From Thermodesulfobacteriota bacterium (GTDB taxonomy: Bacteria; Desulfobacterota; Desulfobacteria; Desulfobacterales; C00003060), in NCBI GenBank assembly GCA_034189385.1, contig JAXHVD010000003.1:64001-128000 (forward strand): a DNA stretch of 64,000 nucleotides. The letters are read 5' to 3'. This document shows positions 23,831-43,375 of the stretch, one piece after another. The first letter of the stretch is position 1, and every line of letters starts with the position of its first letter. A program made the position numbers and the translations under genes. The notes beneath the pieces are model-generated. The model saw nothing but the letters and a program-made list of their open reading frames with translations. It had not been told where the DNA came from and did no database searches.

Positions 23831-24007
23831 GTGAAAAATCTGATCTTCGGCGTTCAGCATACGCTAAACCCCTTGCATGTGTATTGTCGTCTTGTGGGTA
23901 TTGGGCTGGACACAGAGATCTCTTTTCAACTCAGCAGATATTATGAGGGAGCAGTCTATAGCAAGCTTTTTAGATTTACGAATTACCTGTATCGCTGTTT
24001 GTCTTAA
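23831..24007 (+). CDS. small protein, 58 aa (QHTLNPLHVYCRL motif); not in ORF track
   Basis: AAGGAGG RBS then GTG; MKNLIFGVQHTLNPLHVYCRLVGIGLDTEISFQLSRYYEGAVYSKLFRFTNYLYRCLS*; first ORF with a strong RBS after the sigma54 promoter. Confidence 0.75.
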   Translation: MKNLIFGVQHTLNPLHVYCRLVGIGLDTEISFQLSRYYEGAVYSKLFRFTNYLYRCLS

Positions 24008-24136
24008 CGGCCTTTTGCCCAAAGCAAGAGACCTTTCATCGATTTGTCCACACGCGTTGGCCACACATTGGTGAAACAGAAGGTGGGAAAAAAGTCCGCG
24101 GGATTGGCCACAAAGAGGGGTAAGTATCGCCGCCCT

Positions 24137-24310
24137 ATGGGGAGACAGGATATCGACGACGTGCTCTATTCCATCAAAGGGGCCATTGACAACCAGGAGC
24201 TTACACCAGAGATGGAACTTTTAAGGAAGCTTCTGGGCGAGCGGGCGTTGCTTTACGACCTAGTCGGAAATCGGCGGGAGATCAAGAAGCTTGTCAGCAT
24301 TTTTGTGTGA
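24137..24310 (+). CDS. small hypothetical protein (57 aa, amphipathic helices)
   Basis: MGRQDIDDVLYSIKGAIDNQELTPEMELLRKLL...; protein-like, co-oriented between the 58-aa ORF and the TusA gene; start uncertain. Confidence 0.5.
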   Translation: MGRQDIDDVLYSIKGAIDNQELTPEMELLRKLLGERALLYDLVGNRREIKKLVSIFV

Positions 24311-24482
24311 CCAGGCCAGAGAGGTTTCCAATGCCTGTTACCTCAAATGGCCTTGCTGGCAGGTGGCGGCCGGCAAGCATGCCTCCAATGGGAGGGGCCT
24401 GAAAGGAAAAATGCCATGTGCCCCTGTAGCCATCTACAGGGAATAGGCCTGGGTAAGAAAGGATCTGGTAGAGGAGAAAGTT

Positions 24483-24707
24483 ATGGCAATACAAGTGTTA
24501 GACACCCTTGGCATGAGGAGTCCCGAACCAATCCTCAAGATAGCTGTTCAGTCCCCGGACATGAGGACCGGTGACATCCTGCAAGTGTTAGGAGACTGCC
24601 CAACCTTTGAAAAAGATGTGCGTGCGTGGTGTAAGCGGCTCGGCAAAGCGCATCTTTCCACAAAGGCCTTGGGGTTGGACAAGAAGCAGATTCAGATACA
24701 GTTCTAG
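24483..24707 (+). CDS. TusA/SirA family sulfur-carrier-like protein (CPxP Cys replaced by Ser)
   Basis: LDTLGMRSPEP...GDILQVLGDCPTFEKDVRAWC...G; 74 aa; GAGGAG RBS. Confidence 0.85.
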   Translation: MAIQVLDTLGMRSPEPILKIAVQSPDMRTGDILQVLGDCPTFEKDVRAWCKRLGKAHLSTKALGLDKKQIQIQF

Positions 24708-24819
24708 AGGGCATATCATAAGAAAGGGCGGACATGCCTTGCAGCAGGCTAAGAGGTTGCTGTTGCGGCAGAAGGGCCCAAGAGAGAAGTTCGAGCCTTT
24801 CCATCTCCCAAATCAAAAT

Positions 24820-26829
24820 TCAATACAAGACGTCACTTCGAAACATCTTTTCTACAAGGCTTCTGTGATAGGACAAGTCAAAGACGCCTCTTTGATCCAT
24901 GAGCGCATAGTACTGATCCAGGGAAATACCTGTCTCAAATGACTTCAGCGTCATGCAGTAGGTCTCGTAAGGCATACTGATGATGTCGTCCAAAAGGAAA
25001 ATGGTGACCGTTTTTTCAGGCGTGAGGTCACCAGATCCTTCTGTTGCAAGCCTTTTCAAAAAGCATGAAAGGTTCAGATAATCGTGCTCGTGCATGGAAA
25101 GGAAGGCGCGATTCAACCGAGGTCGGCTGGTCTGATAAGAGCTCCTTATTCTTTGGGATCTGTCACGAAAAAGGGCCTTTTGGGTCTGCAGGGTGATCAG
25201 GTCTTCAATGAAGGGGATCCTGGAGAGCATAGAGTCATCTTGCGTGAGCTTCTTTTTCAGTTCATGGAGGAGCGCACAGTGACCTAGGGCTCTGAAAAGG
25301 TTCCCAGCTCTGGCAGTGGACATATTTGCCGCCACTTTCTCAAGGAGACCGATGACGTCTTCGCCTAGACATGCAAAAAGGATGTGAAAGAGCTCGTGGG
25401 ACTCTTCTTCCAGGCTCTTAAGCATGCCTACCAACATCTCGCATCTAAAGATGTCTTCTTCAGACAGGGCCTTGGGGGTGTATATGCAGAGATTGTCAAC
25501 TGAGAAGCTATAGTGCTCCTGGCCCCTGAGCCTTCTTGTCCAAGAGATGAGCGTATCGATGTCCCGGGGATTTTCCACATGGCTTTCCCAGTAGCCGCTT
25601 CCCACATCTGTGGACAGATGGTCGTAGTATACTCTTACGTTTGTGAGTCCACCTACAAACAGATTATGTTTCAGTCGAAAAATGTTTACAATCTCTTCCC
25701 TTAGGGCAACGTTTTTGGGGGTGGTTTCATGATATCGGCTAAAGAACAGGTATGTCTTCACCCCATGGTCGAGCCTTTTGTTGACGAGATCCAGGTTCTT
25801 TTTCAGGTCTTCAATAGAATAGGTCTTTTGATGCTTCACCTTCTGACGGCTCTCATCGTCAAAGACCTCTGGTGACATCTCAAAGAGCGGCCGGTCTTGC
25901 CTATTGAGGACGAAGAGTTCTTTGTACAGATCCAGAAACTCGGCGTCGAACAATTGCCAAGCACCGTAGTTCAGCTGAAAGGTCTTGACCAGGTCCTCTT
26001 CCCCCTTCATGGCCTCGAACAGGGCCTTTACGTAACTTCGGTCTATCTCATAACAGATGTATATTTTTCTAGTATACTCTTTTAGTTGCTTAAGGTCTGA
26101 CACAATTGCAGCAATCGATCTCGTCACCGGCTTTGTTCTGCCGCTGTGAAGCTTGAAAGCCTCACGGCTTCCTCCACAATAACGGCACCCGTACGTGCAT
26201 CCCCTGCCAATGAAGAGAGGAAATCCAAGCTTTCTTTCCAGGAACATAGTGTACAACTGGTAATCAAACAGATACCTGAGATTGGAAAAGGAAATGCTGG
26301 AAATGGTTGCCTTGTCTATGAAATAGGAGGCTTCATTGACGCCAACACCCCTTTTGTTTCTATATATAAGATTAGGGATATCGCGTACATCGGCATGGGA
26401 AAGGAGGAGCTCTAAAGGCCTTTCGGGGTCGCCCTTTACAACATAATCGACAAAGGGCCATTTCCTGATGAGCTCCTCTGCAAAATAGCTGCCTGTGAAA
26501 CCGCCGCACACGATTTTAGCCTTATGGGTCATCGCCTTTATGCGCTCACCTACCCAGTGCACTCCTTCTGCGGTTTCTTGCCAATGAAAAACCAAACCGA
26601 TATGGGTTGGGCGGAATTCTTGCAGATGATGGCCCAGGACCTCTTCCATCTCCGCCTCTTTGTAAAGGGCCAGGTTCAGGATTCTGGCCTGTCTCTTCCT
26701 GTGGTGCAGGTAGTCGCACAACCCAAAGGTCCCCATAGGAATATGGGTAAAGTGGACACTGGGACAGTTTATGATAAGCAGTCTTGGTGGCATATCCATT
26801 TTAGGGCTCAGGAATCTTTCTTCGGTCAT
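24820..26829 (-). CDS. B12-binding domain radical SAM protein
   Basis: N-terminal cobalamin-binding-like region (PMG, KIVCGGFT, VDYVVKGDPE.PL), GRGCTYGCRYCGG; start about 26829 or slightly downstream (track start overlaps the aro promoter). Confidence 0.82.
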   Translation of the reverse strand: MTEERFLSPKMDMPPRLLIINCPSVHFTHIPMGTFGLCDYLHHRKRQARILNLALYKEAEMEEVLGHHLQEFRPTHIGLVFHWQETAEGVHWVGERIKAMTHKAKIVCGGFTGSYFAEELIRKWPFVDYVVKGDPERPLELLLSHADVRDIPNLIYRNKRGVGVNEASYFIDKATISSISFSNLRYLFDYQLYTMFLERKLGFPLFIGRGCTYGCRYCGGSREAFKLHSGRTKPVTRSIAAIVSDLKQLKEYTRKIYICYEIDRSYVKALFEAMKGEEDLVKTFQLNYGAWQLFDAEFLDLYKELFVLNRQDRPLFEMSPEVFDDESRQKVKHQKTYSIEDLKKNLDLVNKRLDHGVKTYLFFSRYHETTPKNVALREEIVNIFRLKHNLFVGGLTNVRVYYDHLSTDVGSGYWESHVENPRDIDTLISWTRRLRGQEHYSFSVDNLCIYTPKALSEEDIFRCEMLVGMLKSLEEESHELFHILFACLGEDVIGLLEKVAANMSTARAGNLFRALGHCALLHELKKKLTQDDSMLSRIPFIEDLITLQTQKALFRDRSQRIRSSYQTSRPRLNRAFLSMHEHDYLNLSCFLKRLATEGSGDLTPEKTVTIFLLDDIISMPYETYCMTLKSFETGISLDQYYALMDQRGVFDLSYHRSLVEKMFRSDVLY

Positions 26830-26898
26830 TATCAAATCCAAATGCAAAAATAAATCCCCATGGGTTGGTCGGCGGGGTTGAGGACTGGCTTTTTTGCC

Positions 26899-26927
26899 TT
26901 GACATCCCAATAGCACCATGAGAATAT
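26899..26927 (+). promoter_or_regulatory. probable sigma70 promoter of the aro leader/operon
   Basis: TTGACA at 26899-26904, 17 nt spacer ending TGn, weak -10 GAATAT in AT-rich context. Confidence 0.45.
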
Positions 26928-26968
26928 ATAAATGGTGTAAGACACGAATATCGGGATTGAAAAAGGGC

Positions 26969-27046
26969 ATGGAAATGAAGGGATACTATTTTAGCTACTA
27001 TTATTACCTTGGTCCGGTCGGCCCATGGCTGAAAGGAGGACACTAG
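26969..27046 (+). CDS. Tyr/Phe-rich attenuator leader peptide of the aro operon; not in ORF track
   Basis: MEMKGYYFSYYYYLGPVGPWLKGGH* (alternative ATG at 26975): 6 Tyr + 1 Phe in 8 consecutive codons, directly before terminators and DAHP synthase. Confidence 0.88.
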   Translation: MEMKGYYFSYYYYLGPVGPWLKGGH

Positions 27047-27072
27047 GCAGTAGCTAGTCCATAGAAAACCTT

Positions 27073-27111
27073 AAGCCGTGGGTAGGCCGGTCAGCCTGCC
27101 CACGGCTTTTT
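27073..27111 (+). terminator. attenuator terminator 1
   Basis: aagccgtgggtaggc-cggtca-gcctgcccacggctt stem followed by a T run. Confidence 0.85.
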
Positions 27112-27122
27112 GGTTTATAGAC

Positions 27123-27161
27123 AAAGGGTCGGGGCAAAGAGCCGCGGCCCTTTTTTATTTT
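27123..27161 (+). terminator. attenuator terminator 2
   Basis: aaagggtcggggc-aaaga-gccgcggcccttt stem followed by tttatttt. Confidence 0.8.
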
Positions 27162-27182
27162 CGAGAAAAAGGGGGGGACAAA

Positions 27183-28205
27183 ATGATTATTGTCATGAAG
27201 CACAAGGCCAAGGAAGAACAGATCGAAAAAGTGATTCAATGGGTTGAATCGGTTGGATATCGTGCGCACGTATCCAAAGGGGTGGAACGTACCATTATTG
27301 GTGCCGTTGGAGACGAGCGGGAAAAGGTCCGCCTGAAAGCTGCAGAAGAGATGTCTGGTGTTGAGAAGGTCATGCCTATCCTTCAGCCCTACAAGCTGGC
27401 AAGCAGGGAGACCAAAGACGGTGACACGGTCATTAAAGTGGGCGACGTGGAGATAGGAGGGCCCAAGTGTGTCATCATTGCCGGGCCATGTGCCGTGGAG
27501 AGTGAAGAGCAACTCATGGAATCGGCGGATGCGGTGAAGAAGGCTGGGGCTTCTATGTTGAGAGGCGGGGCCTTTAAGCCGAGGACCTCCCCCTACAGTT
27601 TTCAAGGTTTGGGCGAAGAGGGTCTGAAAATCCTGTCCCGTGCGCGGGAGAAGACCGGATTGCCCATCGTAACCGAGGTCATGACCGACTCGGACGTGAA
27701 GCTTATTGAGAGTTATGCAGATGTGCTTCAAATAGGGACCAGAAACGTACAGAACTTCGCTCTCTTGAAGGCCGTGGGCCATGCAAAAAAGCCTGTGCTC
27801 TTAAAAAGGGGCATGATGACCACTCTGGAAGAGCTGCTGATGTCTGCCGAGTACATCATGGCCTCTGGAAATGACGACGTGATTTTGTGTGAGAGAGGCA
27901 TTCGAACCTTTGAAACGGCCATGCGCAACACTCTCGATATCAGCGCCGTGCCTGTGTTAAAGGAGAAGACCCATCTGCCGGTCGTGGTGGACCCGAGCCA
28001 CGCCATCGGAAAATGGCGGTTTGTTCTACCCCTGGCAAAGGCGGCCGTGGCAGTGGGGGCCGACGGCCTGATTATAGAAGTCCACCCGCATCCAGAGCAG
28101 GCCCTGTCCGATGGACCTCAATCTCTGAAACCTGAAAAGTTCCATGCACTCATGGACGAGATTGAATCCATTGCTAAGATCGTTAGAAAGGGATATGGAC
28201 AGTAG
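27183..28205 (+). CDS. aroF: DAHP synthase type I-beta with N-terminal ACT/ferredoxin-like regulatory domain
   Basis: MIIVMK...SKGVERTIIGAVGD, IAGPCAVES, LRGGAFKPRTSPYSFQG, KPVLLKRG, LCERGIRTFE, VDPSHA. Confidence 0.95.
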   Translation: MIIVMKHKAKEEQIEKVIQWVESVGYRAHVSKGVERTIIGAVGDEREKVRLKAAEEMSGVEKVMPILQPYKLASRETKDGDTVIKVGDVEIGGPKCVIIAGPCAVESEEQLMESADAVKKAGASMLRGGAFKPRTSPYSFQGLGEEGLKILSRAREKTGLPIVTEVMTDSDVKLIESYADVLQIGTRNVQNFALLKAVGHAKKPVLLKRGMMTTLEELLMSAEYIMASGNDDVILCERGIRTFETAMRNTLDISAVPVLKEKTHLPVVVDPSHAIGKWRFVLPLAKAAVAVGADGLIIEVHPHPEQALSDGPQSLKPEKFHALMDEIESIAKIVRKGYGQ

Positions 28206-29301
28206 GATGGAGCAAATAAGGGTCCATTTGGAAAAGAAGACAGATGACTCCTATGACATCTTTGTTGGTGAAGGTATCATGGATAGCCTAGGGGCAATGA
28301 TTCAAGCCCAAGAGCCTGCCGATCAATGCATCGTCATTACAGACTCAAATGTGAATCGACTTTATGGAAAAATGGTCGAAGAAAGGCTCAGGCAAGGAGC
28401 GCTGTCCCCAGAGATTATTGAGATTCCGGCAGGCGAAGCGTCAAAATCGATGGGGGTTGTTCTTGATGTAGCCACACAACTCGTTGAGCTGAAGGCCAGC
28501 CGCAAATGTCTCCTCATTGCCTTTGGGGGTGGGGTGGTGGGAGACCTTGCCGGATTTGTGGCATCCATCTACAAACGCTCTGTGCCCTATGTCCAAATAG
28601 CGACCACCCTTGTGGCCCAAGTGGACAGCAGTGTTGGAGGCAAGACCGGTATTGATCTTCAACAAGGCAAGAATCTCCTCGGTACCTTCTATCAGCCAAA
28701 AGCGGTCTTTATCGACCTGTCATTTTTAAAGACCCTGTCTGACAGGGACTTTAAGAACGGATTGGCTGAAATCATCAAATACGGCATTATCAGAGATGGA
28801 GAGATGTTTGGCCTCCTAGAGGCTGATAAGGACCGTGTTATGGAGCGGCAACCCATGCTGATGAAAAACCTGGTGGTGCGTTCTTGCAAGACAAAGGCCC
28901 ATGTCGTGGAACGAGACGAGAAGGAGGGGGACCTGAGACGCATACTCAATTTTGGCCATACCCTCGGACACGCCCTGGAAGCCGCATCAGACTATCGGCT
29001 TTCTCACGGTGAAGCCGTGGCCATAGGAACCGTGGGGGCCTCGAAAATTTCCCGAAAACTCGATTTCCTAGATGAAGAGAGTCATGGAAGGATCGTTCAC
29101 TTAATCAAGCAGTACGGACTTCCAACCAAGATCCCACGAGGATTCAATACAGACGAACTCCTTGATTTCATGGCCAGTGACAAGAAAGTAGTAGGGACAA
29201 AGATCTACTTCGTGCTCATAAAGCGGATAGGAAACCCTTTTGTCACAGCCGAAGTGCCCACAAGCACGATCAGAGACGTGATTGAAGAGATGAAGTCATG
29301 A
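28195..29301 (+). CDS. aroB: 3-dehydroquinate synthase
   Basis: GEASK, GGGVVGDLAGF, TTLVAQVDSSVGGKTG, KNLLGTFYQP, LNFGHTLGHALE, HGEAVAIG, DKK. Confidence 0.95.
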   Translation: MDSRMEQIRVHLEKKTDDSYDIFVGEGIMDSLGAMIQAQEPADQCIVITDSNVNRLYGKMVEERLRQGALSPEIIEIPAGEASKSMGVVLDVATQLVELKASRKCLLIAFGGGVVGDLAGFVASIYKRSVPYVQIATTLVAQVDSSVGGKTGIDLQQGKNLLGTFYQPKAVFIDLSFLKTLSDRDFKNGLAEIIKYGIIRDGEMFGLLEADKDRVMERQPMLMKNLVVRSCKTKAHVVERDEKEGDLRRILNFGHTLGHALEAASDYRLSHGEAVAIGTVGASKISRKLDFLDEESHGRIVHLIKQYGLPTKIPRGFNTDELLDFMASDKKVVGTKIYFVLIKRIGNPFVTAEVPTSTIRDVIEEMKS

Positions 29302-30434
29302 ACAAAGATAGCCTTAACACATATAGGGACAAGATTGATGCCCTAGACCTTGAACTCTTGAAGCTCTTAAACGACAGGGCCTCGGTGTGTCTTGACATCG
29401 CAAAGCTGAAGGCCGAAAAGGGCCTTGAGATCCATGATCCCTTGAGAGAACAAGCCGTTTTCACGTACCTGGCTCAGCACAACAAGGGGCCTTTAAAGGC
29501 TGGCGATATCGAGGAGATTTTCAAAAAGATCGTCTCCATATCAAGAAGGCTCCAATCTGCGGCTTCTGCAAACGGCCTTGGCGCCCGGGCCGAATCCGGT
29601 GAAATGGGTGCACCTTTCACGCCAACCGGCAGCACGGCTCTCTATGGGATACTGGGAAATCCTGTGGCGCAAAGCATGAGTCCCCTGATGCACAATACGG
29701 CCTTCAGACTTCTGGGTATTGATGCCCTGTACCTCCCTTTTGAGGTGAACGATCTATCCCTTGCCTTTTCCGGTATGAAGGCCCTGAACATTCAAGGTGC
29801 CAGTGTGACCCATCCCTTCAAAGAAAAGATCATCGGGCTCATTGACGAGGTCGATGATACAGCCAAGAAGATAGGAGCGGTGAACACCCTGGTTTTTGGA
29901 CAAGGGCGCGTTCGCGGTACGAACACAGATTGGGTGGGCGCTGTCAGGTGTCTTGAGGCCCTGCTTCCCGTAAAAGGACACACTTTTGTGGTTCTTGGTG
30001 CAGGCGGAGCGGCCCGGGCCGCAGTCTTTGGCATTACGAGCCATGGAGGCAAGGCCATTGTAGTAAACAGGTCCGAAGCAAAAGGACGGGCCTTGGCCGA
30101 GGAGTTCGATTCCCTGTTCGTTCCCCTTTCTGAGATCCAGGGTGTTTCCGGTGACTGTCTGGTCAATACGACCCCTGTGGGCATGTATCCGAAAACAGAC
30201 GCGCTGCCTGTGCCAAGAGAAGTCTTGGGCCGGTACAAGGCTGTGGCTGATGTCGTCTATAATCCTCTAATGACCATGCTCTTGAAGGAGGCCGAAAAAG
30301 CAGGATGCCTGGTGGCCAGCGGCTTTGAGATGTTCCTCTATCAGGGTGTTGAACAGTTTACTACCTGGACAGGGAAAAAGGCTCCTGTAAAGGAGATGAG
30401 AGATGTGGTCTACGGGAGGTTGTCGACGTCATGA
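29298..30434 (+). CDS. aroE: chorismate mutase (AroQ/CM_2) - shikimate dehydrogenase fusion
   Basis: N-terminal ~86 aa YRDKIDALD..LL.LLNDR...K...DPLRE...SRRLQ; then GNPVAQSMSP.MHN, SVTHPFKE, GAVNT, NTD, GAGGAARA, NTTPVGM, DVVYNP. Confidence 0.92.
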   Translation: MNKDSLNTYRDKIDALDLELLKLLNDRASVCLDIAKLKAEKGLEIHDPLREQAVFTYLAQHNKGPLKAGDIEEIFKKIVSISRRLQSAASANGLGARAESGEMGAPFTPTGSTALYGILGNPVAQSMSPLMHNTAFRLLGIDALYLPFEVNDLSLAFSGMKALNIQGASVTHPFKEKIIGLIDEVDDTAKKIGAVNTLVFGQGRVRGTNTDWVGAVRCLEALLPVKGHTFVVLGAGGAARAAVFGITSHGGKAIVVNRSEAKGRALAEEFDSLFVPLSEIQGVSGDCLVNTTPVGMYPKTDALPVPREVLGRYKAVADVVYNPLMTMLLKEAEKAGCLVASGFEMFLYQGVEQFTTWTGKKAPVKEMRDVVYGRLSTS

Positions 30435-31693
30435 GGCCAATTCAACCGACGAGAGATATCCGTGCCAGCATCCGTGTGCCAGGGTCGAAAAGCTATACCC
30501 AAAGGGCCCTGATTGTGGCTGCCCTGGCAAGAGGCCACTCTTTGATTACAGGCCCCCTGTTTTCCGAAGACACAGAGCACCTGATAAAGGCCCTCGGCTC
30601 CTTGGGCGCCCAGGTCAGGCCCCAAGGCCCTGACCTGACCGTGGTGGGGACAGGAGGAAATGTAAGGCGCCCCTCTGGGCCGATCTATATGGGAAATAAC
30701 GGCACGGGTCTGAGACTCCTGACCGGCACGGTCACTCTTGGACAGGGAACCTTTGTCCTTGACGGCAACGATCGCATGCGCCAGAGGCCGATCCAACCCC
30801 TGGTCGACGCCTTAAATGAGCTGGGGGGCGAGGTCTCGTGCAGAAAGAAGAACGGCTGCCCCCCTGTGGAGGTCGTAGCAAAAGGGCTCGGGGGTGGAAA
30901 GACTACCCTAGCAGGAGGGCTTAGCAGCCAGTATCTCTCCTCTCTTCTTCTGGCCGCTCCCTGTGCCAGAGGGGACGTTCGGATCGAGGTCCTGGGCTCC
31001 CTTCCGTCACGGCCCTACATTGACATGACCCTGGATGTGATGGAGCACTTTGGCGCAGAGGTGTCCCTGTTGGATGAGAGGTCTTTCCTGGTCAGGGCGC
31101 CTCGGGCGTATCGGGCCAGTGAGTACGCCGTAGAAGGTGATGCCTCCAGCGCCACCTATTTCATGGCCGCTGCTGCCATCTGTGGGGGCACTGTAAGGAT
31201 AGACAATGTCAGCCCCGATTCTGTCCAGGGGGACCTGCGGTTCACCCATATTCTTGAGACCATGGGATGCCGGCTGGGGAGATCAGACAAGGGATTGGAA
31301 ATCACAGGCCCATTGTCTTATCACGGAGATCTTTCTTTCGACCTTCATGATGTACCTGATATGGTCCCGGCCCTTGCCGTGGTTTGCGCCTTCAGGAAGG
31401 GGAAAACCGACCTTGAGAACATCGGGCACCTTCGTATCAAGGAATCGGACAGGATCGCCGCCCTGACTCAGGAGCTCAGAAAGATCGGGGCCACAGTGGA
31501 AGAGAAGGAAGAGGCCATGGTAATCCAGGGCCTGGCCACCCGAGGAGGCGAGATAGACTCTTATGACGATCACCGTATTGCCATGAGTTTTGCTATAGCG
31601 GGCCTGGCTATTGAGGGCGTCGTTATCAAGGCTCCTGATTGTGTGAAGAAATCCTTTCCCGATTTCTGGGATAAGCTGGAGTCTCTTGGTTGA
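30431..31693 (+). CDS. aroA: 3-phosphoshikimate 1-carboxyvinyltransferase (EPSP synthase)
   Basis: PGSKSYTQR, GNNGTGLR, RP, SSQYLS, EGDASSA, RIKESDR, DDHRIAM, KSFPDF. Confidence 0.96.
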   Translation: MRPIQPTRDIRASIRVPGSKSYTQRALIVAALARGHSLITGPLFSEDTEHLIKALGSLGAQVRPQGPDLTVVGTGGNVRRPSGPIYMGNNGTGLRLLTGTVTLGQGTFVLDGNDRMRQRPIQPLVDALNELGGEVSCRKKNGCPPVEVVAKGLGGGKTTLAGGLSSQYLSSLLLAAPCARGDVRIEVLGSLPSRPYIDMTLDVMEHFGAEVSLLDERSFLVRAPRAYRASEYAVEGDASSATYFMAAAAICGGTVRIDNVSPDSVQGDLRFTHILETMGCRLGRSDKGLEITGPLSYHGDLSFDLHDVPDMVPALAVVCAFRKGKTDLENIGHLRIKESDRIAALTQELRKIGATVEEKEEAMVIQGLATRGGEIDSYDDHRIAMSFAIAGLAIEGVVIKAPDCVKKSFPDFWDKLESLG

Positions 31694-31702
31694 AAGGAAG
31701 CC

Positions 31703-32161
31703 ATGAAAAAGAAACCTACGATCCTGGTCATTCACGGCCCGAACCTGAATATGCTGGGGCGGCGCGAGCCGACCTGGTATGGCCGTGCCACGCTGGAGGA
31801 GATCGATGCTTCGATCAAGGAGGCCGCCCAAGAGGTCGGTATGACAGCAGAGACGTTCCAGTCCAACTATGAGGGGGCCATCGTCGAGAAGATCCACCAA
31901 GCCATTGAGACATGCGACGGGGTGATCATTAACCCGGCAGCCTATACCCACACCAGTGTGGCCATAAGAGACGCCCTCTTGATGCTGGATATTCCGATTA
32001 TCGAGGTCCATCTTTCCAATATCTACCAGCGAGAGACCTTCAGGCACCGATCCTTTGTTTCAGATGTGGCCACGGCCCGGGTGGCGGGTTTTGGTAAAGA
32101 GGGCTATATGATGGCCGTACGGGCTTTGTCGGATATGGTGAAAGAAGGATCAGGGCATTAG
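31703..32161 (+). CDS. aroQ: type II 3-dehydroquinate dehydratase
   Basis: HGPNLNMLGRREP..YG, QSNYEG, INPAAYTHTS, EVHLSN...RE.FR..S. Confidence 0.96.
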   Translation: MKKKPTILVIHGPNLNMLGRREPTWYGRATLEEIDASIKEAAQEVGMTAETFQSNYEGAIVEKIHQAIETCDGVIINPAAYTHTSVAIRDALLMLDIPIIEVHLSNIYQRETFRHRSFVSDVATARVAGFGKEGYMMAVRALSDMVKEGSGH

Positions 32162-32164
32162 GAG

Positions 32165-32677
32165 ATGAACATCATTCTGATCGGATACAGGGGAACGGGC
32201 AAGACGGTTGTAGGGAGGGCCCTTTCCAAAAGGCTTGGCAGGCCCTTTTTTGACGCAGATGACTATGTTGAAGAAAAGGCCGGCAGGACGATCAGCGACC
32301 TGGTGGCAAAGGAAGGGTGGCCCTTTTTTCGGGCAAGAGAAAAGGAAGCCATCCGGCAGCTCTCTGACATGGACGACTGCGTGATCGCTCCGGGCGGGGG
32401 GGCCATCATGGACAAAGAGAATGTGGCCTTTCTTGGTAATAAGGGGTGGTTTGTCCTCCTTGAGGCCGACATTGACACCATGATTCAGAGGATTCAGGGC
32501 GATGAGGCAAGCTCAGAGCAGCGGCCCGATCTGTTGGGGGGCGACATATATGAAGAAACCCAGACGGTGCTAAAAGAGCGGATGCCTGTCTACGAAGATG
32601 TTGCGGACATCTCCGTGGATACGTCACAGTTGTCCATCGATGAAGTGGTGGAAAAGATCGTTCAGCAGTTGCAGTGA
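32165..32677 (+). CDS. aroK: shikimate kinase
   Basis: LIGYRGTGKT P-loop, D.D, FRARE, GGG, RP.L, ER...Y. Confidence 0.94.
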   Translation: MNIILIGYRGTGKTVVGRALSKRLGRPFFDADDYVEEKAGRTISDLVAKEGWPFFRAREKEAIRQLSDMDDCVIAPGGGAIMDKENVAFLGNKGWFVLLEADIDTMIQRIQGDEASSEQRPDLLGGDIYEETQTVLKERMPVYEDVADISVDTSQLSIDEVVEKIVQQLQ

Positions 32678-32696
32678 AGAATGGATGGGAGGTCTT

Positions 32697-33749
32697 ATGG
32701 CAGGTAACACCTTTGGCAAAGCCTTTGCGGTAACGACCTGGGGTGAATCCCATGGAAGAGCCCTGGGGGTCGTCATTGACGGCTGTCCCCCCCAATTTCC
32801 CCTCACAGAATCGGACATTCAAGACGCTCTGGACAAAAGACGGCCCGGAAGGGGGCCCTCAAGTACCCCAAGGCGGGAGCCGGACAGGGTGGAGATCCTC
32901 TCCGGCGTCTTCGAGGGAAAGACCACGGGAACGCCCATCTTGCTTATCATCTACAACAAGGATGCAGACAGCAGGTCTTACAGCGCCATCAAGGACTTGT
33001 TCAGGCCTGGTCACGGAGACCTTACCTACCAGAAGAAATACGGAATACGTGACTACCGGGGAGGCGGCAGGGCCTCTGGTAGAGAGACCGTGGCCAGGGT
33101 GGCAGCCGGGGCTGTGGCAGGCGTGGTCCTCCGTGAAGAGGGCATTGACGTGCAGGCCTACACCTTGGAACTTGCAGGGATCAGGGCCGAGGGCGTAGAC
33201 CCAGGGGCGGTGAGTAGGAACGTCTTCTTTGCCCCGGACCTGGAAGCGGCGGACCGAATGGCAGAGAGGATAAAAGAGATCAAGGCCGCAGGCAATTCGG
33301 CCGGCGGAGTGGTGGAAGTGCGGGTCAGGGGGTGTCCGGCCGGACTGGGGGAACCTGTCTTTGACAAACTGGATGCAGAGCTGGCAAAGGCCCTCATGAG
33401 CATCGGGGCGGTGAAGGCCGTTGAAGTGGGGGTGGGCCTAGAGGCAGCCAGGCTGCTCGGTTCTGAATGCAATGACGAGATCACGCCCCAAGGATTCGTC
33501 ACCAACCGTTCTGGAGGAATACTGGCAGGGATCTCAAATGGCGATGAGATTGTGGCAAGGGCTGCCGTGAAACCCATATCCTCCATTGAGATTGAACAGA
33601 AGACCATTGATATCCGTTCAAGACCCACTACCATCTCTGTGAAGGGGCGCCATGACGTCTCCGCCATCCCCAGGATCGTGCCTGTGTGCGAGGCCATGGT
33701 CAGGCTGGTCATTGCGGATCATCTCTTAAGGCAGAGACAGGTGAGGTGA
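32697..33749 (+). CDS. aroC: chorismate synthase
   Basis: MAGNTFG, TWGESHG, RRPG, RPGH.D, RDYRGGGRASGRET, GEPVFDKL, GGILAGISNG, GRHD; GGAGG RBS. Confidence 0.96.
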   Translation: MAGNTFGKAFAVTTWGESHGRALGVVIDGCPPQFPLTESDIQDALDKRRPGRGPSSTPRREPDRVEILSGVFEGKTTGTPILLIIYNKDADSRSYSAIKDLFRPGHGDLTYQKKYGIRDYRGGGRASGRETVARVAAGAVAGVVLREEGIDVQAYTLELAGIRAEGVDPGAVSRNVFFAPDLEAADRMAERIKEIKAAGNSAGGVVEVRVRGCPAGLGEPVFDKLDAELAKALMSIGAVKAVEVGVGLEAARLLGSECNDEITPQGFVTNRSGGILAGISNGDEIVARAAVKPISSIEIEQKTIDIRSRPTTISVKGRHDVSAIPRIVPVCEAMVRLVIADHLLRQRQVR

Positions 33750-37380: not shown

Positions 37381-39189
37381 ATGGACCAGAAGTTGATTAG
37401 AAACATAGCCATAATAGCCCATGTAGATCACGGCAAGACTACCCTTGTGGACCAGTTCTTTAAGCAGAGCGGCATGTTTCGGGACAACCAAGCCATGACC
37501 GAACGGCTCATGGATTCCATGGACCTGGAGAGGGAACGGGGAATCACCATAGCCGCCAAGAACGGCTCTTTCCGGCACAGGGATTATGTGATCAATATTA
37601 TCGACACCCCGGGGCACGCCGATTTCGGCGGCCAGGTTGAGCGGGTGCTCCGCATGGCAGACGGCTGCCTGCTCCTAGTCGATGCCCAGGAAGGCCCCAT
37701 GCCGCAAACCTATTTCGTGCTGAAAAAGGCCCTGGCCATCTCCCTTCCAGTGCTGGTGGTGATCAACAAGATCGACAAGGCCGCGGCCCGGCCGCACTGG
37801 GCCATGGACCAGGTATTTGATCTCTTTGTCAAGCTGGAGGCACCGGATGAGCTGCTGGACTTCCCAGTGGTCTTTGCCTCAGCCAAGGCGGGGTATGCCC
37901 TAAACGATCCTGACGAGGCCATTGACGGTGCCTCCATGGTGCCGCTTTTTGAAAAGATCATCGCCCACATCCCGCCGCCCGCCGGGGACCCTCTGGACGT
38001 GCTCCAGCTCCAGGTGAATACCATTGATTACTCCCCTTATCTGGGCAAGCTCGGCATCGGCAAGGTGGCAAACGGCTCCATGAATATCAATCAGGATGTT
38101 GCGGTGGCAAAGCGGGACGGCAGCCTGGCACCGGCCCGCATCACCAAGATATTTCGCTTTGAGCGAGACCGGAAAGTACCCATCGACACAGCCAGGGCAG
38201 GGGAGATTGTGGCCGTGGCCGGCATGGACGACATCACCGTGGGCGTTACCTTTACCGACCCGGAGGACCCCAGGCCCCTGCCCCTTATCCATATCGACCC
38301 CCCCACCGTAGGGATGCATTTCATCCCCAACGATTCTCCCTTTGCCGGCCAGGAGAGCGAATTTGTCACCTCCCGCCACCTGGAAGAACGTCTCTTCCGG
38401 GAGACCCTGGCCGACGTGGCCCTCACCGTGGAATCCCTGGGAGCCGGGGCCGGTTTCAAGGTTTCCGGCCGCGGAGAGTTGCACCTTTCCATCCTCATCG
38501 AAAAGATGCGGCGAGAAGGGTACGAGTTCCAGGTGACCAGGCCCCAAGTCATCATGAAGGAAGAAGGGGGCCAGCTTCAGGAGCCTTTTGAGGAGCTCAC
38601 CATTGACGTGGACGAAGAGTACCAGGGTGCAGTCATTGAAAAGCTTGGCAGACTGAAAGGGCAGATGCTGGAGATGCACTGCCGCAACCACATCGTCCGG
38701 GTAGTCTACAAGGTTCCCACCCGCGGACTTATCGGCTTTCGGAGCGAATTTCTCACAGACACCAGGGGTACGGGCGTGATGAATTATGTCTTTGCCGGCT
38801 ACGGCCCCTTTGCGGGCGAGATCATAAACCGGAGCAGCGGCGTCCTTGTGGTCAAGGAGGCCTGCACCACCGTGGCCTATGCGCTCTTTAACCTCCAGGA
38901 GCGGGGGCGTCTTTTCCTGGGCCCAGGGGTCAAGGTCTACGGTGGCCAGATCATCGGTGAGCACTGCCGGACCGGCGATCTAGTGGTGAACCCCGCCAAA
39001 GGGAAGAAGCTCACGAACATGCGTGCGGCAGGATCTGATGAAAACGTCATCCTCACACCACCCCACCGCCTCAGCCTTGAGGACTGTCTTGCCTTTATCA
39101 ACGATGATGAACTGGTGGAGGTAACCCCAGCCGCCATTCGGCTGCGCGAGCGAAACGCATTCGTTCGGGAAAACGGCCCACGAAGCTGA
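37381..39189 (+). CDS. typA: translational GTPase TypA/BipA
   Basis: [71 protein letters not shown]. Confidence 0.97.
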
Positions 39190-39344
39190 CTATGTTAAAC
39201 CGCAGCGACCCCCATGCCCGCTTCTCTCCATACCGCGCGGGGTCGAGGTTCTTCTTCTTAGCGGCTGCAACGTAGACGTGAAAGTTAACGAGATTCTGGA
39301 CCGGGGCCTCAAGGAACGAGTAGCAAGAAAGGGAAGACGGCTTC

Positions 39345-39803
39345 TTACGAAACCGTCAAAACTGTAATCGCCTCAACTGCCTGGTCTGGCGTGGTGACAT
39401 ATTGGATCCCTTTCATATCAGGCCATGTGTGGAGTCCAATGACCGGCTTTCCCAGTTTCAGCCCAATACTGATCTCAGACAGGGTGCCATAGCCCCCTGA
39501 GACGGCGACCAGGATATCTGCCGTTCTTACGATCAATATGTTTCGGGCATGACCCAGGTCTGTCACGATGGGGATCATGACATAGGGATTAGCCTCACCC
39601 CTGTCAGCCCCTGGAAGGATGCCCACGGTCTGTCCGCCTGCCTCATAGGCCCCCTGGCAAGCCCCTTCCATGACGCCGCCCAAGCCGCCACAGACCAGAG
39701 TGGCACCGGTCTCTGCGATGCCGGCCCCGACCCTTCTTGCCTGCTCATAAACCGTCTCATCGCAGTGGCCTGCCCCGATCACGCCGATCATTCTCATGGC
39801 CAT
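39345..39803 (-). CDS. TIGR00725 family protein (LOG/Rossmann-like)
   Basis: IGVIGA, VCGGLGGVME, GILPG, ARN, GGYGTLSEI. Confidence 0.9.
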   Translation of the reverse strand: MAMRMIGVIGAGHCDETVYEQARRVGAGIAETGATLVCGGLGGVMEGACQGAYEAGGQTVGILPGADRGEANPYVMIPIVTDLGHARNILIVRTADILVAVSGGYGTLSEISIGLKLGKPVIGLHTWPDMKGIQYVTTPDQAVEAITVLTVS

Positions 39804-39890
39804 CTCCTTTCCTTTCTTCTCCTTGACGGAGTGGTAGCGGCCTGGGTACCTTAGCCCGAGGGTGGCCCCTTAGCACCGCCGAGCCAAGAC

Positions 39891-41228
39891 ATGGAGAAAG
39901 ACGCCCCTCACATCCTTTTGATCAATCCCTGGATTCATGATTTCGCGGCCTATGATTTCTGGGCCAAACCGCTGGGGCTGCTGACGATTGCGGCCATCCT
40001 GCACACCCAGGGCTACAGCATCACCTACATTGACTGTCTGGATCGCTTTCATCCAGAGTTGCCTCCATCCCAGAAGACGGGCGCGTTCGGCAAGGGACAT
40101 TACCTTAAAAGCCCCATCCCCAAACCTGACACCCTGCCCGACGTTGCTCGCACCTACAGCCGTTACGGTATTCCAGAGGCCCCTTTTCGAAAAAGCTTGG
40201 AGCAGGGACCCAAGCCTGATGTGGTCTTGGTGACCTCTCTCATGACGTACTGGTATCCAGGTGTCTTTGCCGTCATCAAGATCGTCCGTGAAATGATGCC
40301 CGAAGTCCCCGTGCTGCTCGGAGGCATCTATGCCACCTTGTGCCACGACCATGCGGTCAAATATGCCGGTGCCGACCAGGTCCTTGCCGGCGCCGATGAG
40401 GGCGCCCTTTTGGATCTCCTTGACCGCATGACCGGCTATAGGACCAGACGTCAGTTTGTCCCTAACGACCTGGATACCTATCCCTATCCGGCCTTTGATC
40501 TGCAACACGCGATCTCCTATATTCCCATCCTCACGAGCCGCGGCTGCCCCTTTCGTTGTGCCTACTGTGCCTCAGGATTTCTGAACAGCCGATTCACCCG
40601 AAGGTCCCCTGACCATGTGATAGAGGAGATTGTATACTGGCACGAAAAGCATTCTGTCAAAGATTTTGCCTTCTATGATGACGCCCTTCTCATTGACGGG
40701 GACCATCACATCATGCCAATCTTGGAAGGGGTCATAAGGCGCGGAATCTCCGTGCGGTTTCACACGCCCAATGCCTTGCACATCAGGCCCATCACGAAAG
40801 AGATCGCAGATTTACTCTTTCGTGCAGGATTCGAAACGATCCGCCTCGGCCTGGAAACCGCCTTTTTTGACCATAGAGAAACCCTGGACAGCAAGGTGGG
40901 GCCCAGGGAATTTGAGCGGGCAGTGCGTTTATTGAAGAAGGCAGGCTTTCAAGAAGGGCAGATGGGCGCCTATCTCCTGTTCGGCCTACCAGGACAGGAC
41001 CTTGAAGAACTGAAGGCATCCATAAAGATCGTAAAAGGCTATGGGGTAAGGCCGGTGCTGGCCCAGTATTCGCCCATTCCCCACACGACGCTCTGGAAAG
41101 ATGCTGTCACCGCATCGCGCTATGACCTGGCCTCAGATCCCCTGTTTCACAACAATTCCATCTTCCCTTGTCAGAAAGAACCCTTCTCCTGGGAAAAGGT
41201 GGCCTTGCTGAAAAGGCTGACACAGTAA
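39891..41228 (+). CDS. B12-binding domain radical SAM protein
   Basis: LLINPWIHDFAAYDFW.KPLGLL, TSLMTYWYPG, LGGIYATL, TSRGCPFRCAYC, FYDDALL, FHTPNALH. Confidence 0.9.
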   Translation: MEKDAPHILLINPWIHDFAAYDFWAKPLGLLTIAAILHTQGYSITYIDCLDRFHPELPPSQKTGAFGKGHYLKSPIPKPDTLPDVARTYSRYGIPEAPFRKSLEQGPKPDVVLVTSLMTYWYPGVFAVIKIVREMMPEVPVLLGGIYATLCHDHAVKYAGADQVLAGADEGALLDLLDRMTGYRTRRQFVPNDLDTYPYPAFDLQHAISYIPILTSRGCPFRCAYCASGFLNSRFTRRSPDHVIEEIVYWHEKHSVKDFAFYDDALLIDGDHHIMPILEGVIRRGISVRFHTPNALHIRPITKEIADLLFRAGFETIRLGLETAFFDHRETLDSKVGPREFERAVRLLKKAGFQEGQMGAYLLFGLPGQDLEELKASIKIVKGYGVRPVLAQYSPIPHTTLWKDAVTASRYDLASDPLFHNNSIFPCQKEPFSWEKVALLKRLTQ

Positions 41229-41559: not shown

Positions 41560-42546
41560 TTAACGAAAGACCTCCTTTACAGCCCGGAGGACCTGGTCGT
41601 GCAGCCCACCGTTCGTCACCACAATACCCCTATTGCTGGTCAGCCTTCTTCCCAAAGAAAAATCCAGGGGCTTTCCCTCCATGTCCGTCACCGTGCCCCC
41701 TGCCTCTTCCACAATGATGGAGCCGGCGGCATGATCCCAAACGGTTTCCATGTAAAATTGCCTAGTGGGAAGACGAAGGTAGATGGCGGCGTCTCCCCTG
41801 GCCACAATACCGTATTTACACTGGCTGTCCATACGCACAGGGGGCTTGGTGATTCCCAGGCGTTCTGCTATCTGGGCGCTTTCTTGGTGTGCGGAGTGGG
41901 CAGATTCAACGGATTCGCAGAACTGGACGTCAGCGGACCGATTGGCCTTAACCACTTCAATCTTTTGTTCCACAGGATCTTTAAACCGTCGCATGGCCGC
42001 GCCCTCTCCCCTAACCGCAACAAAGAGGCAGCCTTTTTCATCCTCTCTTTCACCGCCATGAAGGGGCAGGTTTGGACATCCCAGCACGCCGACAACGACC
42101 TCGCCGTCTTCGACCAGGGCCAGGGCCACCGCATATTGGCCACCCCTTAGGAAGCCCTTGGTCCCGTCTATGGGATCAAGGGCCCAGAACCGTCCCTTGG
42201 CTCCTCCCTTGCCGGCACCGCGATCTATGGCGGCTAACGCCTCAGTGTCAGACAGCTTGGGGATGATGCGTCGGACATGATCAGTCACCAGGTCTCTCAG
42301 CCCAGCATTCTCTTTCTCTCGCAGCATGCCGGAGGCCTCTTCAGCCATCAAAGGATCCTTTGGAAAGGAAAGGGCCAGATAGTGGCTAATTACTGCCTGG
42401 GCACCAAAATCGGCAATCGTCACAGGTGATCGGTCCTTCTTCTCCAACACCTTATGGGGATCAAAAGTAGCGCGCACGGCCTCGCAGAGCGTGCAGGCAC
42501 GAATAACCGATGCAATGGCGACCTTGCGTTCTAATTCGTAGGGCAT
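41560..42546 (-). CDS. 3'(2'),5'-bisphosphate nucleotidase (HAL2/MET22-like)
   Basis: KKDRSPVTIADFGAQA, AEE, WALDPIDGTKGFLRG.QYAVALA, GCPNL, ESVESAHS, DSQCKY, WDHAAG. Confidence 0.92.
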   Translation of the reverse strand: MPYELERKVAIASVIRACTLCEAVRATFDPHKVLEKKDRSPVTIADFGAQAVISHYLALSFPKDPLMAEEASGMLREKENAGLRDLVTDHVRRIIPKLSDTEALAAIDRGAGKGGAKGRFWALDPIDGTKGFLRGGQYAVALALVEDGEVVVGVLGCPNLPLHGGEREDEKGCLFVAVRGEGAAMRRFKDPVEQKIEVVKANRSADVQFCESVESAHSAHQESAQIAERLGITKPPVRMDSQCKYGIVARGDAAIYLRLPTRQFYMETVWDHAAGSIIVEEAGGTVTDMEGKPLDFSLGRRLTSNRGIVVTNGGLHDQVLRAVKEVFR

Positions 42547-42571
42547 GTAACCTCACTCCTTTTTTTGCCCA

Positions 42572-43375
42572 TTAGACCTTGGCGTGGGCCTCCACATAAG
42601 ATCGAACAGTGGAATAGACCCTTGACACCTTTTCACAGGCAGGCAGGGCATCTCGGATCATCTCCAAGTATCCTCTTTCGAGGATGATTTGAAATGTGCG
42701 AGGGAAGTTCACGTCATAGACCCAGGCCATTTGCAGGACCTTAAAGTCGTTTACCGTTCTAAGGGATTCGAGCCGCACAATCCGACCGGCCAGGAGATCT
42801 TCGCATACTTCGTCCGAAATTTCAGGCCTGTGGGGCAGACCAAGGTCTATGGCGCCGTTTTGCTCTTCCTCCTTTTGGCCATAATGCTCAGTGACCACCC
42901 GCCAGATGTCAACCTTGTCGGCATCCCGGAGCAGTTTGGTGAAAAAGAGACACTCCTCGGTCTCCCTTTTCGGAAGGCCCAAACGGTTATGATAGGAAAT
43001 AACCCTTAAGATCAGGTTACGGGTTGGCCGATCAACATCCTTTAACACGCTGTACTTGTGCAAGATCCTCATACCAAGCATGGCATGGTCTTCAGAATCC
43101 TTGTCCGAAAAGGTCCTGTAACGAGCATACTGTTCAAATCGACCCACATCATGAAAAAGGGCCATCACTTCTGCCAGGCAAAGGCTTTCAGCCCCGAGTG
43201 ACAGGCTCTTTCCGATGTCCAGGATTGCCGCGCAAACCCGCCTGGTGTGCTCGTCTTTGAGGTCTATGTTCCGTGTCTGTTCACGATCTCCAGCTCGAAA
43301 AGTCTGCACATATTCTGAAAACCATTTCCTCAATGCCACAATGTCCAACCCATCCATAATGAGCCTCGTACCCAT
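42572..43375 (-). CDS. HD domain protein
   Basis: LKDEHT.RV, FHDVGRFEQY..Y.TF.D..S.DHA, HN, RDADKVDI. Confidence 0.88.
   Translation of the reverse strand: MGTRLIMDGLDIVALRKWFSEYVQTFRAGDREQTRNIDLKDEHTRRVCAAILDIGKSLSLGAESLCLAEVMALFHDVGRFEQYARYRTFSDKDSEDHAMLGMRILHKYSVLKDVDRPTRNLILRVISYHNRLGLPKRETEECLFFTKLLRDADKVDIWRVVTEHYGQKEEEQNGAIDLGLPHRPEISDEVCEDLLAGRIVRLESLRTVNDFKVLQMAWVYDVNFPRTFQIILERGYLEMIRDALPACEKVSRVYSTVRSYVEAHAKV

Follow-up and report, generated by a model that had tools for sequence, protein, structure and literature searches.

The best-known leader-peptide attenuators, trpL, pheL and hisL, combine a set of regulatory codons with mutually exclusive antiterminator and terminator helices and control terminal biosynthetic branches. 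The his leader passes its signal along a relay of alternating helices, in which A:B, C:D and E:F are set against B:C and D:E. A leader of this kind has also been placed in front of a gene of the common aromatic pathway, as Neshat et al. reportedly described in 2014 an aroR leader in Corynebacterium glutamicum that precedes the aroF (DAHP synthase) operon. The sections of a review that treat this leader state that aroR contains a Phe-Tyr-Phe motif and that read-through into the aroF operon rises under Phe limitation and not under Tyr limitation (PMC11802643). A second candidate is the uORFC-13-1 motif, found before aroF in Acholeplasma; the pages that present it describe a predicted uORF adjoining an intrinsic terminator, proposed to sense the speed of amino acid incorporation, and refer to an older proposal that E. 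coli aroF is controlled by attenuation (PMC8632094). The three DAHP synthases of E. coli, AroF (Tyr), AroG (Phe) and AroH (Trp), are placed under the TyrR and TrpR repressors in the passages that deal with them (PMC11802643).

The locus considered here lies in a stretch of 64,000 nucleotides (hereafter the window) from a Thermodesulfobacteriota bacterium of the Desulfobacterales. Upstream of aroF the window carries what we are fairly confident is a leader-peptide (ribosome-mediated) transcription attenuator, predicted from the sequence to raise read-through into aroF-aroC when a ribosome stalls at a Tyr-dominated codon run. The logic is that of trpL, pheL and hisL, and the his leader is likewise a chain of alternating helices; in the window, however, two of the alternating helices are full terminators with T-runs, and the common pathway is controlled rather than a terminal branch. 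The likeness to aroR, taken from the sections that treat it, is a functional analogy only: a short leader ORF of aromatic codons precedes a DAHP synthase gene, and stalling raises transcription of the operon. The window differs in having 6 Tyr codons and 1 Phe codon, seven common-pathway steps, two interlocked terminators and a host from another phylum. The uORFC-13-1 motif is also a functional analogue only, with a predicted uORF beside an intrinsic terminator before aroF; as described on the pages that present it, the motif is Phe-based (a U-rich run), has one terminator and occurs in Acholeplasma and environmental sequences only.

The preliminary description of this DNA, made from its letters alone, knew of no Tyr-sensing attenuator described for a full aro operon in this lineage. 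As a claim to novelty this stands for the Desulfobacterales, for which none was found in the literature searched, but leader-peptide control of aroF had already been described in other lineages. The principle of attenuation at aroF is therefore known and the double-terminator wiring is a variant of it. A literature search with most subscription journals outside its scope returned neither a tandem-terminator leader-peptide attenuator nor any leader-peptide attenuator in the delta-proteobacteria or Desulfobacterales. Within the same scope, interlocked terminators opened by one stall and combined with isozyme-specific leaders were not found as a design.

Leader ORF, predicted promoter and downstream operon

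The leader peptide ORF occupies positions 26969-27046 of the plus strand, where an ATG at 26969 opens 25 codons (MEMKGYYFSYYYYLGPVGPWLKGGH) that are closed by a TAG at 27044-27046. The regulatory codon run YYFSYYYY (26984-27007, plus strand), with 6 Tyr and 1 Phe in 8 codons, is the predicted stall site, and the single Trp codon of the ORF lies at 27026-27028. The preliminary description had reported a 25-codon Tyr-rich ORF of just this composition, and it is present in the sequence. An alternative in-frame ATG at 26975 (23 codons) has the better Shine-Dalgarno spacing, with AAGGG followed by 7 nt; the leader of the relative L006 begins ATG GAA ATG and so matches the start at 26969. Contigs from two DNA runs represent strain variants with four substitutions here (27042, 27043, 27047 and 27048), by which the last leader codon is altered and the TAG stop is kept.

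A sigma-70-type promoter is predicted by eye on the plus strand upstream of the ORF. It consists of TTGACA at 26899-26904, a 17-nt spacer and a TG-extended GAATAT at 26922-26927, and would place the start of the leader transcript near 26935. The consensus promoter scan does not list 26899-26927, the -10 element having only 3 of 6 matches. TTGACA is found at a similar distance 5' of the leader in the relatives L002, L016, L012, L013 and L017. A 716-aa minus-strand ORF that extends to 26970 is most likely an over-extension of a divergent radical-SAM/B12 gene that starts near 26799.

Short ORFs with such a density of aromatic codons are uncommon next to terminator-like structures in this genome. 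A search of all six frames of the 4.13-Mb assembly (90% complete) yielded 47 short ORFs in which a stretch of 10 residues includes 6 or more aromatic ones. A hairpin and T-run follow within 160 nt in seven cases, and two strong hairpins in only two of those seven, namely the aroF leader and a Phe-rich leader on contig C34.

The predicted controlled operon covers 27183-33749 on the plus strand, as read from its ORFs and their Pfam domains. It begins with aroF (27183-28205), which encodes a DAHP synthase with a ferredoxin-like (regulatory) domain, and continues with aroB (to 29301), a chorismate mutase::aroE fusion (29298-30434), aroA (30431-31693), aroQ (31703-32161), aroK (32165-32677) and aroC (to 33749), all in the same orientation. 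The operon thus contains all seven common-pathway steps as well as a chorismate mutase domain. The aroF ATG lies 21 nt past the second T-run of the downstream terminator described below, a gap too short for a separate promoter in the window. Four sequencing runs were examined, and the single metatranscriptome contig among them (run X4, 229 nt, depth 2.4) lies inside aroF.

Terminators and alternative helices

The 5' strand of the antiterminator (segment 2) is located at 27011-27030 (plus strand) within the leader ORF, in the codons for GPVGPWL. Terminator 1 (T1; 27073-27111, plus strand) comprises segment 3 (27073-27093, the 5' arm and loop), segment 4 (27094-27108) and a T-run at 27107-27111. 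Its hairpin (27073-27108) has 15 pairs, 10 of which are G-C, with a folding energy of -28.1 kcal/mol, and starts 27 nt 3' of the leader stop. Segment 2 is complementary to positions 27074-27093 at 17 of 20 positions when G-U pairs are counted. Both the strong terminator at this distance from the leader stop and the complementarity of 27011-27030 to its 5' arm and loop had been pointed out in the preliminary description, and both are borne out.

That description overlooked a second terminator (T2; 27123-27161, plus strand) between T1 and aroF. T2 is built from segment 5 (27123-27135), segment 6 (27141-27153) and T-runs at 27151-27156 and 27158-27161; it has a folding energy of -18.4 kcal/mol, with one G.G mismatch in the window genome. 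It is not listed by the consensus terminator scan and was read directly from the sequence. Segment 4 and segment 5 are in turn predicted to form a relay helix (4:5) between 27098-27112 and 27122-27135 of the plus strand, with 14 pairs and one bulged A, at -19.1 kcal/mol and z = -2.3 against shuffles of segment 5. For 26935-27183 as a whole, folding gives z = -5.2 relative to 200 shuffled sequences.

These elements suggest how the leader may operate. When aromatic amino acids are plentiful, the ribosome would pass segment 2 and reach the stop codon, T1 (3:4) and T2 (5:6) would both form, and transcription would end at 27111 or at about 27156-27161. When Tyr-tRNA is scarce (or, to a lesser degree, Phe-tRNA or Trp-tRNA), the ribosome would stall at 26984-27007 and segment 2 would pair with the emerging segment 3 (2:3). 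The freed segment 4 would then capture segment 5, segment 6 would be left without a partner, and polymerase would read past both terminators. If attenuation is granted, this relay via two terminators is the better-supported wiring, and we lean towards it. The preliminary description had proposed that the stall frees the antiterminator and thereby lets all seven common-pathway genes respond. The first step is supported by 2:3, which is conserved and forms in masked folds; the second does not follow from it, since T2 comes next. With a conserved T2 before aroF, 2:3 alone would give no read-through, which would need either 4:5 or a leaky T2.

Folding with a ribosome footprint masked, which the preliminary description had recommended, gives an MFE containing 2:3 when the RNA extends to 27093 and the ribosome sits on Tyr codon 7, 11 or 13. 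With the RNA end at 27113, T1 beats 2:3 at equilibrium. With the end at 27140 and a stalled ribosome, the MFE consists of 2:3 and 4:5, and once the entire leader RNA is out T1 is back. Since T1 is favoured at equilibrium once segment 4 emerges, antitermination must be kinetic, as is also the behaviour of classical attenuators. The masked folds fit a relay in which 2:3 would release segment 4, segment 4 would take segment 5 and segment 6 would stay unpaired. A ribosome at the stop codon spans only about 27027-27056 and scarcely touches segment 2, so that the blocking of 2:3 in times of plenty would rest on timing or sterics and not on direct masking.

One further pairing was rejected as a conserved mechanism. 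Positions 26951-26968, in the region of the leader RBS, pair with 27152-27169, the T2 3' arm and T-run, at 17 of 18 positions (z = -4.5 in the window), and this helix dominates the full-length MFE. It is significant in 0 of 12 relatives and is probably due to chance or lineage-specific.

Conservation of the structures was assessed in alignment A2, which holds 26 distinct sequences (two sets, 14 and 12) from Desulfobacterales and Syntrophales-type MAGs; its counts refer to sequences and not to evolutionary events. T1 and T2 together have 94.3% of cells paired, against 32-58% in slid controls, and 12 pairs with compensatory change; T1 accounts for six of these (92.8% of cells paired) and T2 for the other six (96.0%). 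The antiterminator 2:3 has 76.1% of cells paired (slid controls 21-40%) and 4 pairs with compensatory change. For helix 4:5 the values are 92.5% of cells paired (slid controls 45-63%) and 2 pairs (15 cells) with compensatory change. Those two pairs change from G-C/C-G to A-U/U-A between clades, and both may go back to one event, a single split between the clades. The core of both T1 and T2 is CCGCGG in Desulfobacterales and CCATGG in Syntrophales-type sequences, and because the same difference occurs in both terminators, 4:5 stays intact.

How much weight 4:5 can bear decides between the relay and its closest competitor, a single-switch attenuator (leader, 2:3 and T1) followed by an unlinked back-up T2 that is leaky or lowers expression, in which 4:5 is incidental. 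A palindromic core common to both hairpins provides cross-pairing for free, and on the sequence evidence helix 4:5 is partly a by-product of that core. Yet 4:5 is conserved as well as the terminators themselves and above its slid controls, and the core dinucleotide is clade-specific but identical in T1 and T2 within each clade. The z-scores of 4:5 against shuffles, taken species by species, range from +0.4 to -3.8, and the values near 0 (+0.4 to -0.07), which belong to the three relatives L005, L018 and L016, suit an incidental helix. On the other hand, three more leader-linked tandem pairs of unrelated sequence in the same genome have a strong 4:5 too. An unlinked T2 would also agree with those leader-bearing loci that lack it (L057 and L063, and probably also L020 and L021) and with the T-run of T2 being broken in several relatives, for example CCCATTTCATTT. 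Where T2 is present, however, its folding energy of -18 to -23 kcal/mol would, without a relay, cancel antitermination at T1. An attenuator with a separate back-up terminator is thus considered unlikely here, if a reading to keep in view.

Conservation of the leader among relatives

The relay depends on a translated leader, and the leader is widely kept. An aromatic-rich uORF is found 5' of aroF in 14 of the 18 same-genus loci (the window's own included). The wider comparison used the 41 aroF loci with enough upstream DNA, which by record name come from Desulfobacterales, Syntrophaceae, Smithellaceae and other MAGs. An aromatic-rich uORF no more than 500 nt 5' of aroF was present in 27 of them, compared with 0 of 41 reverse complements and 1 of 41 shuffled sequences. 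The closest aroF loci carry the record titles of uncultured Desulfobacterales, Desulfobacteria or 'Deltaproteobacteria' MAGs. The 27 uORF-bearing loci include records named Syntrophaceae, Smithellaceae, Syntrophobacterales, candidate-phyla-radiation lineages and Clostridium oceanicum, and among these 27 the structure comparison covered the Desulfobacterales and Syntrophales-type loci only.

Counted by eye, a typical leader of the same-genus loci contains 4-7 Tyr, 1-4 Phe and 1-2 Trp. Within the ORF columns of alignment A1, gap lengths are 3, 6 or 12 nt, with the exception of one 1-nt gap in one divergent row, and the uORF frame and aromatic run are kept across two orders. The preliminary description had called for a search of relatives for Tyr-rich uORFs and covarying stems; these counts supply the former, and as to the latter, compensatory changes accompany the conservation of each of the two alternative helices. 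Its reading of the locus as attenuation geometry, with an antiterminator opposed to the terminator's 5' arm and the whole of aroF-aroC under control, is supported by this conservation of leader and helices.

Four same-genus loci (L009, L017, L015 and L014) are without a leader. No leader elements were seen within the 288 nt of upstream sequence available for L009. L017 retains the aromatic run and both hairpins and carries a deletion of the beginning of the leader ORF, its promoter TTGACA lying almost immediately before the Tyr codons. In L015 and L014 the leader ORF is missing; a same-strand upstream gene stops only a few bases short of T1-T2, and the distance from T2 to aroF is about 100 nt. 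This arrangement looks like a derived state in which T1-T2 serve as an ordinary double terminator. The spacer between T2 and aroF is also long, about 190-270 nt, in L012, L010 and L036, where its length makes another promoter after T2 possible.

Such loci are the best argument for an alternative in which the hairpins end a short non-coding transcript or insulate the operon, the uORF is untranslated, and aroF is governed by another promoter or by an RNA-binding protein or ligand. In L015 and L014 the T1-T2 pair does stand behind an ordinary gene without a leader, and the long post-T2 spacers of some relatives could accommodate the promoter that this alternative requires. In the window, however, the gap of 21 nt between T2 and aroF and the divergent orientation of the upstream gene speak against it, as does the maintenance of the uORF frame and aromatic run across two orders. 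An Rfam search of window positions 24000-30000 returned, apart from two chance-level matches, no family at E <= 1, whether T-box, riboswitch or leader family (Trp_leader RF00513, Phe_leader RF01859, His_leader, Thr_leader and so on), and the lack of a T-box or riboswitch likewise tells against a ligand-binding RNA. Insulation or termination of a non-coding transcript is accordingly considered very improbable. Nascent-peptide arrest of the TnaC/SecM type, which would respond to the free amino acid instead of to how much charged tRNA is available, is the least credible of the alternatives. Conservation of the peptide tail G-(P/Q/R)-V-(C/G)-P-(W) from clade to clade speaks for it, but the codons of this tail are segment 2, whose conserved GGTC(T/G)GCCC pairs with the T1 5' arm so that RNA constraint alone explains the conservation, and the aromatic run is variable in both length and residue order, which is what hungry-codon sensing predicts.

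Leaders on paralogous genes and amino acid specificity

The genome encodes three DAHP synthases with the ferredoxin-like domain, and their leaders are Tyr-, Phe- and Trp-rich, respectively. The Phe-rich leader (six Phe) is followed by two interlocked terminators on contig C34 (about 165911-168100, minus strand; L067:112-2300) and lies 5' of a 625-aa DAHP synthase-prephenate dehydratase-ACT fusion. Divergent from it, a WWWW leader with two terminators precedes trpE (contig C34, about 168200-169872, plus strand; L067:2400-4073). The 4:5 helix of this trpE leader is the strongest relay hairpin of the genome, at -25.9 kcal/mol and z = -8.5. On contig C56 (about 41802-43030, minus strand; L068), a Trp-rich leader with four Trp and one Phe, together with a terminator, lies 5' of the gene for the third DAHP synthase (335 aa). 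One more Phe-rich leader (eight Phe) with tandem terminators is found on contig C17 (about 38030-39940, plus strand; L069), about 390 nt before a gene for a PaaK-like AMP-binding ligase, and may place an aryl-acid route to or from phenylalanine under attenuation control. The genome contains 44 tandem terminator-like pairs under a loose definition that admits many inside genes, and the leader-linked pairs rank 1, 4, 5 and 6 of these by 4:5 z-score (-8.5, -3.6, -2.7 and -2.1). An Rfam search of the paralogous leaders gave only a Thr_leader match of 23 bits, against a gathering score of 55.

Across the genus, a Phe leader stands in front of the fusion-type gene at 5 of 5 loci, and 3 of 3 further operon-type loci have a Tyr-dominated one. 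Of the 11 loci of the third DAHP synthase type, only 2 have a Trp leader, which means that the three-leader set is not genus-wide. A prephenate dehydrogenase gene (tyrA; Pfam PDH_N) was not found in the 90%-complete genome.

A response mainly to Tyr, as the codon run would predict, is plausible for the aroF-aroC operon. It gains indirect support from the other two DAHP synthase paralogues, which carry Phe- and Trp-rich leaders; if three isozymes are addressed by Tyr-, Phe- and Trp-rich leaders, the aroF-aroC copy would be the Tyr-responsive one. A purely Tyr-specific response is not established, because the leaders of relatives also hold Phe and Trp codons. Nor need codon content predict the amino acid that is sensed, since C. 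glutamicum aroR, in the sections that treat it, responds to Phe and not to Tyr (PMC11802643).

Taken more broadly, the leaders may belong to a 'domino' type of attenuator in Desulfobacterales and Syntrophales, in which one stall is relayed from 2:3 to 4:5 and disarms two serial terminators, and which in this genome would act on all three DAHP synthases and on trpE. We consider this generalization evenly balanced between true and false. If true, it would imply a tighter off-state than that of classical attenuators, and a design principle whereby one stall opens two interlocked terminators while each isozyme is addressed by its own amino-acid-specific leader. It would also mean that attenuation alone takes the place here that the TyrR/TrpR isozyme regulon has in E. 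coli. The two organisms are alike in having three DAHP synthase paralogues with one aromatic amino acid each; they differ in that control is predicted here to run through three leader peptides and attenuation, not through DNA-binding repressors. A low-leak amino-acid-responsive switch is a possible use of the arrangement. We know of no regulator of aromatic amino acid synthesis in these uncultured sulfate-reducer and syntroph lineages, for which the leaders provide a probable means of control. They also add unannotated small ORFs and an RNA element absent from Rfam to the annotation.

Short ORFs resembling leaders occur elsewhere in the genome. On the minus strand of contig C1 (leader stop near plus-strand position 218643), a Trp-rich short ORF (WCWWW) and one terminator lie directly before genes for LivH/LivM-like ABC permeases and may constitute a Trp-sensing attenuator on an amino acid importer. 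A Thr-rich short ORF (TT..TTTT) on the minus strand of contig C6 (reverse-complement index about 55325) is followed by a strong hairpin and a T-run and is a candidate thr leader. An Ile/Val-rich short ORF on the minus strand of contig C10 (reverse-complement index about 14951) is likewise followed by a strong hairpin and a T-run, making it a candidate ilv leader.
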